A stretch of 64,000 bases of DNA from a virus: IMG/VR virus record IMGVR_UViG_3300023174_000089, positions 32,001 to 96,000 of that record. The stretch is one strand, 5' to 3'. The position numbers were made by a program, and so were the translations under genes. The first letter of the stretch is position 1; each line of letters starts with the position of its first letter. Under the pieces are notes generated by a model. The model saw nothing but the letters and a program-made list of their open reading frames with translations, had not been told where the DNA came from and made no database searches. Below, piece by piece: positions 1-28,951 of this stretch.

Positions 1-7261
<7,261 letters not shown>

Positions 7262-7300: not shown

Positions 7301-8461
7301 CTAAGTATTTAGTTTAATAGTTTGAGGCAAATCGTGAGGATAATTTTTCTTTAACCAATTCAATTGAAGTCTTGCATCATTTCTTTCATACCAACCATTA
7401 CCAGTGTAAACATTTAAAACGGATTGAAAATATTCCTCATACATTTTGCCAACTTTCTCCAATGTAAAGTTTTCAGCAAAAGCACGACAATTTTTAGGAT
7501 TTATATTGTGTATATTTTGTGCAGCCCACATAAATTGTTCAAAAGTTCTACAACGATAACCGGTAATACCATGAATATTATTTTCTGTAAATGAACCCCA
7601 ATCGGTTGTAATAGTAGGAGTTCCAGAGAACAACATTTCTACCTGAACACCGCCAAAAGGTTCAACATACATTGATGGCACAAAGGCTGCTTTTGCACCA
7701 GACATTAATTTTCTTCGTGTTTCAACGTCAGCATAACCAATTTCAGTAACATGAGCTGGTATTTCTTTGTAACCCATTTGTGTCAATGAGTTTTGACCAG
7801 CAATAACTAATTTTGCACCTATTGCTTCAGTCGCTTGAACGGCAACATTAACACCTTTGCCATCATACACACGACCTAAGAATAGAAAGTAATCTTCTTT
7901 TTTCTCCTGAAAAGTAAAATCATCAGGATCGAAATAGTTTGGAATTACTGCATCATACCAATCTTGTTTACAACTGCCAACTGCTGTCATTCCATAATAA
8001 GCGTGATAGATTGCATATGATTCAAATATTTTCCAACGAGCCCAATGGCCACCAGCATAACCAATTCCTGGTTCTACACAGATCATATCAGAGTGTGCAT
8101 CACAAACTGGACGAACACCAGAACCCCAAAATGGAAGAATGAAATCGTGTTTTTGTTTTCTTAGACCAACTTCACGGATGGCATTTTTATAAAATGTTTG
8201 ATAAGCGTGGTCATTGACATCAAACTTATAGAAGTTCTTCCGCCAGTCATAATCACCATAAGCAATTTCTAAATCTTTATTGGTGGTTACTGTAACGTGT
8301 TCATCACAAACTAAATTTGAATCTTCGTGACCATAGTGAATGATGGTATGGCCAAGAGCCTTCATCATTTTACCAAACTTAACTACCTTTTGTGTATAAG
8401 CACAGGCATTATATTCTTTTGAAGATACTGTATGTGGTAAACCTAAAATATGAAAACGCAT
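7301..8461 (-). CDS. Glycosyltransferase family 4 (GT-B)
   Basis: [12 protein letters not shown] and [16 protein letters not shown] motifs (E-x7-E). Confidence 0.9.
7306..7313 (-). promoter_or_regulatory. T4-type late promoter candidate (ACTAAATA) upstream of the fibre genes
   Basis: Variant of TATAAATA about 45 nt upstream of the 7261 start. Confidence 0.5.
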
Positions 8462-23517: not shown

Positions 23518-23580
23518 TTACTTCTCCTTTTGTGTGTTGTGTGTGTTATCAGCGAAATGTGTGTGCTGATACATTATATA

Positions 23581-23884
23581 GGCCAGGTGATTCTGTTGCT
23601 AAGTTCACCTGGTGAAACTCCGCTTACCGTTTAGGCAGCAAGTGCAAACTTATTATCGTTAGCGTTTAATTTAATTTGCTTCTTCGGCCGAGTATCTTCA
23701 ACCCTAACGTCTTTAGCTTTGACGATTCTCCATTGTTCTAATTATTGCTATGTCGAATCTAGGCACCCCCATCAGAAGTATATTGCCACATTTGTGTTTG
23801 CTACCAAGAACCTGGTTCGTCAATATACTTTTGGTGGAGGTGGTGGGAATCGCACCCACGTCCACAACAACTTTGAAACAACTT
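23581..23884 (-). ncRNA. ssrA: Circularly permuted (two-piece) tmRNA; tag peptide ANDNKFALAA
   Basis: Acceptor piece ...GTGGG-TGCGATT-CCCAC-CACCTCC-ACCA ends at 23832 and comes before the coding piece starting GGGGGTG...ATTCGAC at 23770. The 7-bp acceptor stem has G3:U70. Tag ORF at 23663-23631. Outer ends approximate. Confidence 0.92.
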
Positions 23885-23992
23885 CTACGAATTTCCTAGA
23901 ATTAATAATGTTGCCATAACTAAAGCAACACCACCAATCCAATAATTAAATCTATTTACTTTTTTTTGTTCTACACAATCTTTACTAGGCAT
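23885..23992 (-). CDS. Small membrane protein (35 aa)
   Basis: MPSKDCVEQKKVNRFNYWIGGVALVMATLLILGNS; TAATG-coupled to the upstream ORF. Confidence 0.5.
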   Translation of the reverse strand: MPSKDCVEQKKVNRFNYWIGGVALVMATLLILGNS

Positions 23993-24167: not shown

Positions 24168-24827
24168 TTAATATTTACCACTTTTCTCATAATATGAAAT
24201 GGCGTTGACTAGACCTGTGATGTGGTCCTCGGTCTTTTGTTTGAATACGATTGGATGGTTATTCTCAACGGCCATAATGATTACTAGGTCGTGGATAGGT
24301 TCACCTATCAACTCCTCATACATCAACGCATAGGCGCTTGTTTGCCAAAAATAATCTTCAATATCTTCATGGCTTTTAACTTTTTTGGATGTTTTGAAAT
24401 CAATTACCGAAAGCACACCATCAAATTCGGCAATACAATCTACACGACCTGCCATATTCAATTGTTTTGACCAAAGTGCCTGTTCTTGGTAATGAATGTT
24501 ATTAATACGATTCAGGTGTGGTTTAATTGATAAGAACATTTCATGTGCATCAGGCATCACATTACCCAAATCTTCATTATTCAAATATCGTTCACATAGT
24601 GTATGAACATTTGTACCACGAGAAGTTGCTTTCTTGGTAATTGCATTAGCAACATCATCACCTACTTTATTACGCCATGCTTGAAAGATGTGTTTCTTTT
24701 GAGCACCAATCACTGTAGTGACTGATGGTAATTTTGTACCATCAGGCAGTTTGTAGAATCGTCTACCATCAGGAAAAGTTTCTGATTGTAAATCTTGTAA
24801 TTGTTTTGGTGGGCAGTAATTAAACAT
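24168..24827 (-). CDS. PD-(D/E)XK exonuclease (T4-like phage ExoA/Cas4-related fold)
   Basis: PSVTTV, RGTNVH, AGRVDC...IDFKTS, Q.SAYA motifs. Confidence 0.88.
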   Translation of the reverse strand: MFNYCPPKQLQDLQSETFPDGRRFYKLPDGTKLPSVTTVIGAQKKHIFQAWRNKVGDDVANAITKKATSRGTNVHTLCERYLNNEDLGNVMPDAHEMFLSIKPHLNRINNIHYQEQALWSKQLNMAGRVDCIAEFDGVLSVIDFKTSKKVKSHEDIEDYFWQTSAYALMYEELIGEPIHDLVIIMAVENNHPIVFKQKTEDHITGLVNAISYYEKSGKY

Positions 24828-25599
24828 TTTTTTTCGTCAAAAACTTTTCTTTTAATCTATCAAATAATGCTATATCTTCTGGTGTAAGAGTAACAGCATC
24901 TACATTTTTTCTATATTCTTTTGCTTGATTCTCAACTTGAAAGATATTCCCATAATATTTGAAATTTTTGGTGATTTGCCTTGTGTCATAGGCATCCATA
25001 ATTATATGATAACGATCTTCATCTGAATCATTTCTAATTTGGTGCCACAAATTCACCCACAGAATATAAACTGAACCATCAGCTGGCATATGTAGATTTT
25101 CACCTTGGCAGATATGCACACATTTCTTATTTGTAATTAATGGAATATGAATTCTTGCCATATAGTTATTTGTGTCTGAATCTTTATGAACCAAAGATTT
25201 TGAATGTGCCTGTAAACAAGATACCCTTGCTCGTCTAGGATAAAACCCTAATGATTCCAAATCATCCAACACTTCTTTAATATAACCAACACATCCTGCT
25301 GTTGGATTTTTATGTTCAAATCCTTCTGCGACATTCATATATTTCATGGCTTTATAATTATATTGGCCATTTGGAAAAAATACATCATTTGTTTCTTTAT
25401 CATCAGAATGATAAACTTCCCAACCATCTCGCCAATCACCAGTTCTAGACAATAATGTCCAACCACCAAAGCCATGGTATTCTAGTGTTTCAAATTCTTC
25501 ACCTTGAATCTGTTGTTTACCAAGAGTGAATACATTATTCTCAACCTCTTTTCTCAATCGGTCGATATCAACTTTATAATCCAACTTTTCATACCACAT
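24820..25599 (-). CDS. 2OG-Fe(II) oxygenase, Asp/Asn beta-hydroxylase-like
   Basis: RARV...HKD...RIHIPLITN...HMPADG...HQIRN...RYHII (HxD...H triad plus Arg). Start at MWYEK, TAATG-coupled. Confidence 0.8.
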   Translation of the reverse strand: MWYEKLDYKVDIDRLRKEVENNVFTLGKQQIQGEEFETLEYHGFGGWTLLSRTGDWRDGWEVYHSDDKETNDVFFPNGQYNYKAMKYMNVAEGFEHKNPTAGCVGYIKEVLDDLESLGFYPRRARVSCLQAHSKSLVHKDSDTNNYMARIHIPLITNKKCVHICQGENLHMPADGSVYILWVNLWHQIRNDSDEDRYHIIMDAYDTRQITKNFKYYGNIFQVENQAKEYRKNVDAVTLTPEDIALFDRLKEKFLTKKNV

Positions 25600-26162
25600 T
25601 ATAAGTTTCCTGTTTCTTTTAAAATTTGACACACATCTTGATAATAATACTGTGTACCTAGAGTAATGGCAAGCCTTTCACTCAAAACATTATTTGGTTT
25701 TACTGCGTGTGGTCGTGTTACATCAAGTAACCACACTTCATTATCTTTTGCGATGAATGATTCTGTTTTTTCCAAATCGTCCTCTTGGTAGATAAATCCA
25801 TTGGTTTGATTATCTATCTGATAGGTATTTGGTTGTTCATCTTTAAACTTATAAAACTGTGTTAAGCAATTTTCAGTTTTTATATAGAAGTTAATTGTTG
25901 AATTTATACCACTATCGGTGTGAGGAGGTATTGAATGGTTCACTTTCATTAAAGACATGAAGAAGTCTTTACGACATCTTTCCGGCAAAACAGAATATAT
26001 TTGTGGATGTAATAATGAATTCAAGTTTAAATATTGTATGCCTTTAAATTGGCCATCAATATTTACACCGTAAGATATTTGAACATCAAGTGGTTCATAA
26101 CCAGGAACAATGAAATTGTTTTTTAATTTAACAAAACTACTTCTTTGATTTCCATTCTTCAT
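25599..26162 (-). CDS. Putative 2OG-Fe(II)/cupin oxygenase
   Basis: IPPHTD...INFY...WLLDVTRPHAV...RLAITL. Confidence 0.7.
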   Translation of the reverse strand: MKNGNQRSSFVKLKNNFIVPGYEPLDVQISYGVNIDGQFKGIQYLNLNSLLHPQIYSVLPERCRKDFFMSLMKVNHSIPPHTDSGINSTINFYIKTENCLTQFYKFKDEQPNTYQIDNQTNGFIYQEDDLEKTESFIAKDNEVWLLDVTRPHAVKPNNVLSERLAITLGTQYYYQDVCQILKETGNL

Positions 26163-26499
26163 ATTGTTTCACGATTTGACATTCATAATCCCAATTAATA
26201 CCTTCATGTGGATTATCCTTAGCGGCTTGCCAAGGTTTACCCAAAATATGTTCGAGAATAGGAATGCCAGGATGTAATATTTTTTCTAATACATCAGCAT
26301 AATCAGTAAACATTTGAAACAACCGCTCTTTATCGGGTTGTTGTAGATTTAAAATGTCGCTGTTCAATTGAGTATCGAAATATTTTACGATATGTTTACG
26401 ATATAACTCAATTTCTTCTTCTGTAACAATACCATCACGGTTGATGTCGGCGTCTGCTACACCATCGTTATTTAAATCAATATCTTTAATATCAGACAT
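26137..26499 (-). CDS. Hypothetical protein with EF-hand-like acidic loops
   Basis: DLNNDG and DINRDGIVTEEE (Dx[DN]xDG motifs). Confidence 0.6.
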   Translation of the reverse strand: MSDIKDIDLNNDGVADADINRDGIVTEEEIELYRKHIVKYFDTQLNSDILNLQQPDKERLFQMFTDYADVLEKILHPGIPILEHILGKPWQAAKDNPHEGINWDYECQIVKQYEEWKSKK

Positions 26500-27475
26500 T
26501 TTCTAATTTCCCCTGAAACAGTTTTTCTTTAAATTCTATTAATTTACTTAGATATAGAGCTGTGTAATAAGTAAAAAATACAAGAGCCCAAATTGTGTAT
26601 ACGGCCAAGACTTGTTGTTTTCTATTTGATTTTGGTTTTGGTGGTATATAACTGACCACTCTACAGATAACTGTACCAATTTTCATAATGATACGACCCA
26701 TGGTGTTATCTTGTTTCAAAACACCCATCTTATAAGCCATATGTTCAGACCAAGGTGTTCCAATCTTAACAGCCATTTCAGTTGCAACAATCTTTTGTTC
26801 AATTTTACGGCGTGATTCTTTTTTGATCCAGAACATAAAATCTGGACCTTTAGCATTCATCCATGATGTAACGATACGAGCCCAACGGATATAACCACGA
26901 TAAACCCTCTTATCTGTTTTACGTAACATCTGGCCATATGCCTGATCAGCTGCCCATATTGTAGAACTCATTAGGCCTTTATCATACAAATCAGCACAAA
27001 CGATCTTAGAACAGTTACATGCACAGTTACAATTAAATGTTGCTGAAGCTGCGGCGCCACAATTGTAGCCTACAGTTGCATTACAGTTACAATTATATCC
27101 AGAAGAACAGTTACAATTGGCTTGAAGATACGATTGTGTATCACAGTTTGTGCAATTTATACCAGAACAATTTGTGCACTGAGATTCAAAGGCACCAAAA
27201 GGTAAACACTGCTGACATTGAATGTTTCCACAGTTACAGTTACAGTTTGTGCAATTTGTAGGAGGACAATTGGTATTTGAACAGTTACCATTATCACAGT
27301 TTCCGTCCATATTTCTCTGATAGTATGCTTTATCTTTAAAAGCATCCATGTTTGGACTGGCTGGAGGATTCTTTAAATAACCATTTAAAAACTGCAAAGA
27401 TGCAGAATATGTTGCACCTAAACCTAGTTCGGTCGTTACATCAGATGTCGATATTTGGCCACTTGGTGTTGTCAT
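26492..27475 (-). CDS. Asn-Cys-repeat protein; putative radical SAM substrate and possible virion protein
   Basis: 22 Cys in residues 59-155; N-terminal PSGQISTSDVTTELG; C-terminal KIVC...YRGYIRWA domain and a hydrophobic segment. Confidence 0.75.
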   Translation of the reverse strand: MTTPSGQISTSDVTTELGLGATYSASLQFLNGYLKNPPASPNMDAFKDKAYYQRNMDGNCDNGNCSNTNCPPTNCTNCNCNCGNIQCQQCLPFGAFESQCTNCSGINCTNCDTQSYLQANCNCSSGYNCNCNATVGYNCGAAASATFNCNCACNCSKIVCADLYDKGLMSSTIWAADQAYGQMLRKTDKRVYRGYIRWARIVTSWMNAKGPDFMFWIKKESRRKIEQKIVATEMAVKIGTPWSEHMAYKMGVLKQDNTMGRIIMKIGTVICRVVSYIPPKPKSNRKQQVLAVYTIWALVFFTYYTALYLSKLIEFKEKLFQGKLENV

Positions 27476-27502: not shown

Positions 27503-27510
27503 TATTTATG
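27503..27510 (-). promoter_or_regulatory. Late promoter candidate (CATAAATA) upstream of the Cys-rich gene
   Basis: Shares ATAAATACTA with the gp48 late promoter and sits a similar ~28 nt from the ATG. Confidence 0.55.
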
Positions 27511-28951
27511 TTGTTTCCAACCGTGATTTTCCATATACTTCAATACCTTCTACCTGACCTATTTTTTCACTTACGACCTTGATGGGTATAACCTTTTTCT
27601 TTGGTTCCTCTTTGTGTTCATAGATTGTACCAAAAATATCTTGGCGTTCTAGGGGTAGACCTTCCGCCTTAATTAAAGTTGGAATGTAACCACCAGTAAT
27701 TTTCTCAATGGCCAAGGCAAACAATGGTACATTATCTGAATATGAGTTTGCACAAGATATATCCCAAAACTTTTCATCTAGGAACATACAAGCACCTTTA
27801 CATAGGTGTAAAACTGGACAACCGCTACATTCTTTACGATTACTCCAATGTGTAGAACTTTTGATTCGAACATTATCAAAATCATCTAGTGTTCCACTAT
27901 GGTGACTTTCACCATTTTTACCCATTTCTAAAGAACTTACGTTTTGACAGGTCATAACATTACCACGCAGGTCAACAGCAAGGGTGTGTTCATCATCCAT
28001 GCCACACTTTTGACCTAAGAATTTAGAATTTGTGTGTGTTAATACTGAACCAATAAACCCATCGATTTTGGCCAACTGGCCAAAGAATCCTATTTTACCT
28101 TGTGTGGTGAATATATCAGCAAATGCTGTTCTACGATATTCAAAGTGTTCTTGTTTTGTTTGTAATGAATTAACGATACCATCTTCATCATAAGCGTCAA
28201 CAATACCACCTTCACCCAATACAACATTTGGATCACCGGTTAGTTTAACAAACCATTCATAAATTTCTTTACGTGATTTGTTTTTCGAATTCATCATTGG
28301 GTTGAAACTAAATGATTTACCCAATCTACTCATCATACGGTGAAATCCAAGAATTCTTTTCTTGGCTTCTGGATCATCAAATGGATCTGGCCCACGAACT
28401 GATTGTCCTGGTCCATCATGTGATATTGATACGGAGAAATCCATCATCATCAACCAATCAATGATATCATCAGTTAGAATTGACCCGTTGGTAATGATAG
28501 AGAATTGTGGTTTTCTTTTCCAATCAGAAAACTTTTCTGCAATAGTTTCGGCCAAAGGTTTTAATGTTTTCCAATATACAAGTGGTTCACCACCCCAAAA
28601 CTCAACTCTTAAGCCAGACTGTTCATCAAATTCTAGTTTGTTAAATTTTTCCATAAAAGAATCGATATCTTTTTTGGATGTTTCTGGCATTCTTTCAACA
28701 AATTTCTGTGAACAATAATCGCAGGAGTAGTTACAACTCAAACCTAATTGAATTTTAATATGTTTAACTAATCTAGATTTTTTGAGTGGATTATTCTTGT
28801 CGAATGGGACATAAGGTTTTAAACCATGTGGTTGAATATTATTGTATTGTAATATGTTTCCATTTTCATCAGACAATATGTTGGTCATATTATCATAATA
28901 AAAAATCCTCTTATCGTCTTTTGACTTCTCGGTGTGTATTTCAAATAACAT
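27506..28951 (-). CDS. Radical SAM/SPASM domain protein (peptide-maturase-like)
   Basis: CNYSCDYC, FWGGEP, ITNG, ISHDG; SPASM Cys pattern KCG...GNVMTC...CSGCPVLHLCKGAC...C. Confidence 0.92.
   Translation of the reverse strand: MLFEIHTEKSKDDKRIFYYDNMTNILSDENGNILQYNNIQPHGLKPYVPFDKNNPLKKSRLVKHIKIQLGLSCNYSCDYCSQKFVERMPETSKKDIDSFMEKFNKLEFDEQSGLRVEFWGGEPLVYWKTLKPLAETIAEKFSDWKRKPQFSIITNGSILTDDIIDWLMMMDFSVSISHDGPGQSVRGPDPFDDPEAKKRILGFHRMMSRLGKSFSFNPMMNSKNKSRKEIYEWFVKLTGDPNVVLGEGGIVDAYDEDGIVNSLQTKQEHFEYRRTAFADIFTTQGKIGFFGQLAKIDGFIGSVLTHTNSKFLGQKCGMDDEHTLAVDLRGNVMTCQNVSSLEMGKNGESHHSGTLDDFDNVRIKSSTHWSNRKECSGCPVLHLCKGACMFLDEKFWDISCANSYSDNVPLFALAIEKITGGYIPTLIKAEGLPLERQDIFGTIYEHKEEPKKKVIPIKVVSEKIGQVEGIEVYGKSRLETT

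Follow-up and report, generated by a model that had tools for sequence, protein, structure and literature searches.

The Asn-Cys-rich core of a 327-aa protein encoded in the window (the whole 64,000-nt stretch of viral DNA analysed here) is best explained as a segment that is modified by the radical SAM/SPASM enzyme encoded immediately upstream, probably also by two oxygenases encoded downstream, and as the local form of a widespread fibre-tip device. The probability of this reading as a whole is put at about 0.6. Judging from the sequences, the core is likely to be the substrate segment of this radical SAM (rSAM) enzyme.

Grammar and conservation of the Asn-Cys core

The gene of the 327-aa protein (the NC gene) and its parts are as follows.

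26492..27475, minus strand: whole gene of 327 aa (ORF), with an N-terminal domain, the NC core and a C-terminal helical module
27302..27475, minus strand: N-terminal domain, aa 1-58, with the conserved MT(L/T)PxSGxIxxSDxxxExG (from alignments)
27011..27301, minus strand: Asn-Cys-rich core, aa 59-155 (from residue counts, a shuffle test and homologue columns)
27230..27247, minus strand: (AACTGT)x3 array coding NCNCNC, reported by Tandem Repeats Finder as (ACAGTT)x3, the sole DNA-level tandem repeat in the core
26492..27010, minus strand: C-terminal all-alpha module, running from the invariant SKI[IV]C (C160) to a long hydrophobic helix (from AF2)
27503..27510, minus strand: CATAAATA, an octamer like the T4-type late promoter (predicted, read from the sequence)

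The 97-aa core has 22 Cys, which follow Asn in 18 cases, Gln in three and Ala in one, exactly as the original prediction had counted, and the strings named there (NCxxxNC, NCNCNC, YNCNC and FNCNCACNC) are each found. The core also has 22 Asn, and Cys comes next after 18 of them. Composition-preserving shuffles (200,000) gave on average 5.0 N-C pairs and at most 13, against 18 observed, and on average 6.4 [NQ]-C pairs and at most 14, against 21 observed. Asn stands at position -1 for 18 of the 22 Cys, as opposed to nine at -3 (NxxC). It stands at -2 for none of them, which rules out an N-x-C glycosylation sequon. The first four core Cys fall on every fifth residue, a spacing shared with the Cys-every-fifth pattern of CefB (NF038107), and beyond these the core Cys are irregularly spaced. 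The core contains three Phe, three Tyr and no Arg, and is fused to other domains. Outside it the protein has two more Cys, C160 (after Val) and C271 (after Ile). The remaining ORFs of the window (100 aa or longer) each have two N-C pairs at most.

A large protein collection contains 281 homologues of the 327-aa protein, all metagenomic and none named. Among the top 120 of these, about 70% of all Cys are preceded by Asn, and the remaining Cys are mostly at the A-C and Q-C positions of the core and at the I/V-C of the C-terminal module. Aligned over 121 homologues, each conserved core Cys has Asn at -1 in 83-100% of the sequences, except for C87 (Gln in 86%) and C153 (Ala in 92%), and the +1 position is often variable. 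Lineage-specific Cys, present in 9-23% of the 121 sequences, are also N-C, in 11/11, 26/27, 20/20, 25/28, 15/15 and 21/21 cases. The N-C units are kept column by column across 45-85% protein identity, and conservation at the position before each conserved Cys equals that of the Cys itself. The original prediction had proposed conservation of the NC dipeptide as a check, and had named retention of the Cys with loss of the Asn as the outcome that would speak against it. Because Asn is conserved by column in the 121 homologues, as strictly as Cys, and newly gained Cys are again N-C, the check came out in favour of the motif.

At the DNA level the core has a single short array, and its Asn codons are mixed (11 AAC and 11 AAT). 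Together with the conservation of the columns, this indicates that the N-C grammar is selected and is not a DNA repeat.

The 327-aa protein has no family in Pfam, PHROG or NCBIfam. Its matches in cultured phages cover the C-terminal module only, and megablast of the cassette against cultured phages gave no match. The AF2 model, built on a 130-sequence alignment, has an all-helical C-terminal module (residues 157-320) with pLDDT above 90. The N-terminal 52 residues are modelled only moderately, and the NC core is given no fold as a monomer, with pLDDT below 50 over residues 53-154.

The N-terminal domain and the NC core form the functional unit, with the helical module as an optional add-on, because short homologues without the module lie beside rSAM. 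These short forms (139-156 aa, covering aa 1-151 only) consist of the N-terminal domain and the NC core, and they directly adjoin rSAM in Polynucleobacter, Paraburkholderia and other contigs (L155, L156, L194 and L148). The helical module has the signature KIIC...IWxAD...GYxxWA...PWSEHMA...DN..GK, followed by a basic tail. Foldseek found no match for it in the PDB, and its BFVD matches are uncharacterised phage proteins only, including a DUF4815 protein and gp028 of Synechococcus phage SynMITS9220M01, which ends in the same helical module and has poly-Pro/poly-Arg. The module also ends phage proteins that have neither an NC run nor a nearby rSAM (L072-L083; L001 4669-6519), and such carriers are coiled-coil fibres and PT-rich, Cys-containing proteins of 800-1100 aa. 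By analogy with the Hint domains on other fibres, the module may be removable.

An HMM of the N-terminal part found one other protein, L099 4709-5761 (351 aa), from a related phage. It shares the N-terminal MTTPSGQISLSQVNTELG motif and has no NC core, suggesting that the N-terminus can move between proteins as an attachment domain. Ahead of the NC gene, the predicted promoter-like octamer overlaps the rSAM stop codon and lies 27 nt before the NC-gene ATG.

The radical SAM/SPASM enzyme and its cassette

The NC gene is accompanied by four further genes.

27506..28951, minus strand: radical SAM/SPASM enzyme of 481 aa, the predicted modifier (PF04055 and TIGR04085 above cut-offs)
26137..26499, minus strand: 120-aa protein with DxNxDG-type acidic loops (by synteny; a conserved cassette member, in this lineage only)
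25599..26162, minus strand: 187-aa cupin/double-stranded beta-helix (DSBH) protein, a predicted Fe-dependent oxygenase (from alignment, AF2 and Foldseek)
24820..25632, minus strand: 270-aa 2OG oxygenase of the Asp/Asn beta-hydroxylase family (PF05118, 40.5 bits against a cut-off of 22.6)

The rSAM enzyme scores 35.5 against PF04055 (cut-off 29.5) and 33.9 against TIGR04085, the SPASM model (cut-off 27). The CX3CX2C radical SAM motif (C73-x3-C77-x2-C80) is invariant in the enzyme alignment, as are seven auxiliary Cys: C316, C335, C375-x2-C378-x5-C384-x3-C388 and C400. Enzymes that keep a cluster site free for a substrate thiolate, CteB among them, have seven auxiliary Cys rather than eight. The cluster motif has only about 60 residues before it, and no RRE-sized N-terminal domain is evident in the sequence; RRE-bearing models align from their position 80-93 onward.

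The best NCBIfam models for the enzyme are those of thioether formers (PapB, geopeptide, QhpD, CcpM and SCIFF), all far below their cut-offs. The enzyme is not a member of the families modelled for PapB (NF047865, 77.1 bits, cut-off 340), QhpD (TIGR03906, 69.9 bits, cut-off 453), CefB (NF038107, 52.6 bits, cut-off 600) or anSME (TIGR03942, 49.2 bits, cut-off 349). Matches to thioether formers in NCBIfam and the PDB mostly span only about 120 residues of the radical SAM core, and the anSME and DynA models are the only NCBIfam models that align over the full length. Cyclopropylglycine synthase is the top PDB sequence match, followed by CteB and anSME, and the anSME structure 4K37 aligns over residues 72-387. 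Since the maturase scores are below cut-off, cyclopropylglycine synthase ranks first and anSME aligns over the full length, the reaction type is not readable from homology. PapB, CteB, SCIFF and CcpM, the best NCBIfam/PDB sequence matches to the radical SAM core, have the seven-Cys SPASM type in common with the enzyme; unlike the 327-aa protein, their substrates are short peptides with CxxxD-type motifs.

The rSAM gene lies directly upstream of the NC gene in all 123 IMG/VR homologue loci, with the whole gene order kept. These are the full-length homologue loci with enough upstream flank, and they belong to one phage lineage, a large T4-like myovirus. Taken alone, synteny within this lineage is weak functional evidence, since unrelated flanking genes are syntenic too. 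A location beside a Cys-rich substrate, one of the features by which the rSAM/SPASM family is recognised, is seen here with the NC protein as the predicted substrate.

The 120-aa protein has no Pfam family and is a putative Ca-binding protein. The 187-aa protein has an invariant H81-x-D83...H152, which is an HxD...H and not a 3-His triad, and its AF2 model (pLDDT 89.9) has a cupin/DSBH fold. Foldseek matches it to cysteine dioxygenase, MINA53/NO66/YcfD and PHD2 (E ~1e-3, TM 0.4-0.48), with the cysteine dioxygenases (TM ~0.4) ranking above the 2OG hydroxylases. Profile comparison with the oxygenase clusters of prophages (see below) is weak, at 12% and 0.8% probability, and the 187-aa protein and these oxygenases are taken to share a common fold class, with no homology claimed. 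The gene of the 270-aa 2OG oxygenase is conserved within the cassette.

The NC gene is about 19 kb from the tail-fibre module of the window. At that distance lies a 1352-aa collagen-repeat tail fibre (3203-7261, minus strand), adjoined by a glycosyltransferase at 7301-8461. A permuted tmRNA gene with the tag peptide ANDNKFALAA was called by ARAGORN at 23540-23924 on the minus strand.

NC ladders and rSAM enzymes in other phages

Two cultured phages, Ralstonia RSP15 and Achromobacter JWF, encode relatives of the rSAM enzyme (43-46% identity) within their tail-fibre modules. Over prophages and these cultured phages, relatives at 35-59% identity lie 0-3.7 kb from tail-fibre genes whose products end in NCNCNC-type runs. 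The JWF fibre gp028 contains ...NCNCDCNCNCSC, directly followed by a Hint domain, and the C-terminal end of the RSP15 side fibre gp048 is ...NTNCQCGN.

Scanning one genome per prokaryotic species with the rSAM alignment identified 80 loci with 35-74% identity, in genomes that include Limnohabitans, Polynucleobacter, Burkholderia, alphaproteobacteria and planctomycete MAGs. Six-frame translation of these loci gives 4,971 ORFs of 80 aa or longer, and the pattern NC.{0,6}NC.{0,6}[NQD]C is present in 63 of them. The 63 ORFs occur one per locus, all on the rSAM strand and 0-3.7 kb away from the enzyme gene, and there are none elsewhere in the ORF set; 61 are upstream of rSAM and two are immediately downstream, as in the window's lineage. 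In fifteen of the 17 loci without the motif, the upstream sequence extends for about 2 kb at most, and one of the 17 (L176) has N-C units at wider spacing when a looser criterion is applied.

By their PHROG tail-fibre families and collagen repeats the motif ORFs are tail fibres, and their NC runs sit at the fibre C-terminus or just ahead of a Hint domain. Examples of fibre ends are NCNCNCQCNC, NCNCNCNCCGCC and NCNCNCDCCC, or NCNC... followed by Hint. In 54 distinct fibre tails the residue before Cys is Asn in 332 of 477 cases, Cys in 49, Asp in 35 and Ala in 20, and many tails finish in CC, CGCC or similar without Asn. In L160, L186 and L003 (JWF gp028) the NC run is followed at once by a Hint (intein-like) domain that starts at Cys, and self-cleavage by Hint would make the NC ladder the new C-terminus of these fibres.

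The prophages as a rule have, between the fibre and rSAM genes, a gene for a protein of about 280 aa that has no Pfam family and a C-terminal part that is Ig-like by eye. Of 52 complete prophage loci, 39 also have at least one 2OG-Fe(II) oxygenase gene in this interval. These oxygenases belong to PF13759 or PF13640, and their clusters c4 and c11 are related (98.7% hhalign probability). The oxygenases are thus frequent but not universal partners, and the NC ladder and rSAM are the invariant pair.

The reverse search used the DNA pattern (AAYTGY)x4 in viral contigs, and its test set was made up of ORFs of 90 aa or longer that have a run of (NC)4 or longer and are flanked downstream by at least 4 kb. 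The rSAM clade is present for 18 of the 20 ORFs in this set; matches of the search in short ORFs are mostly non-coding microsatellites. The NC motif and the rSAM enzyme predict each other. A repeated modification or recognition motif would be expected to give such a tie across unrelated lineages; a generic metallothionein or disulfide pattern would not. The view that N-C is an enzyme-recognition motif, as originally predicted, thus has good support from its context, through the conservation of Asn and the association with rSAM in both search directions, with the modification itself, and the use of about 20 sites, being predicted. The motif is now placed at phage tail-fibre tips, a placement that was not part of the original prediction. 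By its core and its adjoining rSAM gene the window protein belongs with these fibre-tip NC ladders, and its own fibre nature is putative.

Other Cys-rich sequences were seen alongside. Pure (AAYTGY)n arrays outside long ORFs, apparently non-coding, occur in GVMAG contigs L237, L240, L243, L250, L273, L304 and others, and a Cys-rich 220-aa ORF of a giant virus (L258) has an NC run and no rSAM. Proteins of 67-82 aa in L241 and L293 (also L249 and L309) end in ...HTHIFYDDYST(A/N)CNCNCNCNC..., and the contigs L241 and L293 also carry a distant relative of rSAM (29% identity), an arrangement that appears to be a peptide-sized version of the system. A 134-aa protein in L305 and L264 is rich in Q-x-C/C-Q units (QSCQGCQTCQGCQ...) and ends in TNCNCNCNCSNCDC; an rSAM relative encoded nearby in L305 has only 24% identity.

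Proposed modification and alternative readings

A fibre or fibre-tip protein with a distal ladder of N-C units would be modified by a dedicated enzyme, and the two downstream oxygenases would probably also act on the NC core. The substrate Cys thiolate would be bound at the open site of the first auxiliary cluster of the rSAM enzyme, and the 5'-deoxyadenosyl radical would take a hydrogen from a nearby carbon, leading to a C-S thioether. The favoured acceptor would be a carboxamide residue, which could be the Asn that immediately precedes the Cys (with a 6- or 7-membered ring as the result) or an Asn in a neighbouring unit or chain. The link could be at the Asn C-alpha or C-beta, within an N-C unit or between units or chains. 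Repetition along the ladder would produce a compact, non-reducible tip that resists proteases and oxidation.

A Cys-Asn thioether is proposed as the product tentatively, by analogy, with the odds somewhat against it. A Cys thioether as such is the most likely product in view of three published precedents. NxxcB joins Cys to the Asn beta-carbon and also accepts Ala, Gln and Asp, and TqqB crosslinks adjacent residues (PMC9389541). CrpC, a SPASM enzyme, puts several thioethers (ranthionine links) on a whole Cys-rich protein, CrpA (PMC13692751).

The streptococcal RiPP system NxxcB/NxxcA resembles the one described here in that a SPASM-type rSAM lies beside a substrate with repeated Asn...Cys units, and the acceptor set of NxxcB (Asn; Ala, Gln, Asp) is the set of residues that precede Cys here, where Asn is far more frequent than Ala, Gln and Asp. 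In NxxcA the NxxC motif is part of a short leader-core peptide, whereas here Asn is directly before Cys, in a 327-aa protein or a whole fibre. The setting here is one of phage virion genes, and the enzymes are likened without a claim of orthology. CrpC/CrpA of Methanococcus voltae and QhpD/QhpC also combine a SPASM enzyme with a Cys-rich protein that has repeated motifs. Their motif is C-x-x-Q/D, with the Cys before the acceptor, and they are cellular, whereas the motif here is N-C and viral; CrpC in addition has an RRE. Among the points against the best explanation, the CC/CGCC fibre ends suit metal ligands as well as thioether donors, only 9 of the 22 core Cys fit NxxC, and the distance of about 19 kb between the NC gene and the tail-fibre module leaves a virion role putative.

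It is also possible, if unlikely, that the rSAM enzyme modifies Cys without making a Cys-Asn thioether, the product being formylglycine (anSME-like), a C-C or C-N crosslink or an epimerised residue. Asn would then be a recognition element only, possibly beta-hydroxylated by the oxygenases, which would fit the presence of an Asp/Asn beta-hydroxylase-family gene in the cassette. That only the anSME and DynA models align over the full length, with 4K37 covering residues 72-387, and that a cyclopropyl synthase is the top PDB sequence match, are consistent with such chemistry. The anSME score itself is 49 against a cut-off of 349, however, and the core lacks the C/S-x-P/A-x-R sulfatase motif. The seven rather than eight auxiliary Cys, as in substrate-thiolate-binding enzymes, also argue against it.

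T4 gp37/gp12-type fibre tips carry HxH metal (iron) sites, and the NC ladder resembles the gp37-type tip in that a ligand residue alternates along the strand at a distal trimeric tip. The ladder could therefore be a Cys counterpart of these sites, in which C-x-C thiolates on the threefold axis of a trimeric fibre bind Fe, Zn or Cu, with Asn providing second-shell hydrogen bonds and the rSAM enzyme acting elsewhere or only assisting. The gp37-type tip uses His, and HxH fibres need no such enzyme, whereas the NC ladder uses Cys and always comes with a dedicated enzyme; metal binding here is hypothetical and rather improbable. It would leave a catalytic-looking rSAM/SPASM enzyme in nearly every locus, in both search directions, unexplained, and would not account for Asn in particular, out of all polar residues, being fixed at -1. 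The alternating C-x-C runs, the terminal CC/CGCC clusters and the lack of a monomer fold for the core in AF2 would be expected of a metal-binding ladder, and CrpA is likewise suspected of metal binding (PMC13692751). The missing monomer fold also counts in favour of the core being an rSAM substrate.

A plain disulfide-rich knot, with Asn placed for turns and the neighbouring enzyme a coincidence of phage synteny, would account for the even and high number of Cys and for the fact that synteny in the lineage covers unrelated genes too. It is very improbable, given that the association spans unrelated fibre families and hosts and is also recovered by the reverse search, that phage proteins fold in a reducing cytoplasm, and that Asn at -1 is not known to determine disulfides. 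Slippage of the hexanucleotide AAYTGY in the absence of selection on Asn, suggested by pure (AACTGT)n non-coding microsatellites in giant-virus and other contigs and by the one 3-unit array within the core, is rejected as the sole cause and has next to no probability, because most core N-C units are isolated, with varied spacers and mixed codons, and their columns are conserved at 45-85% protein identity.

For the reading of the core as a segment modified by the rSAM enzyme, the combination of a SPASM enzyme with a Cys-rich substrate is already known in kind, and the novelty lies in the N-C grammar, in a target on virion fibres and in the wide spread among phages. Full-text literature searches turned up no paper that connects phage fibres with radical SAM enzymes or NC repeats. 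More speculatively, phages of many lineages may enzymatically staple their receptor-binding fibre tips, with a dedicated rSAM/SPASM enzyme, often joined by 2OG oxygenases, converting (Asn-Cys)n into a stack of thioether rings that link adjacent or neighbouring Asn and Cys. If true, the ladder would represent a new type of crosslink motif in proteins, and RiPP-like maturation would for the first time be seen on a structural protein of virions.

N-C units next to the rSAM clade would then be a simple sequence rule for finding substrates, and the iterative N-C motif could serve as a genetically encoded stapling tag. A crosslinked ladder would mean that radical-SAM 'RiPP chemistry' acts on virion proteins, a class of post-translational modification that is not considered in phage structural biology or in the engineering of receptor-binding proteins. 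It would also explain the orphan rSAM gene that recurs in tail modules of many prophages and of the cultured phages JWF and RSP15, and whose annotation is often 'anaerobic sulfatase maturase'.
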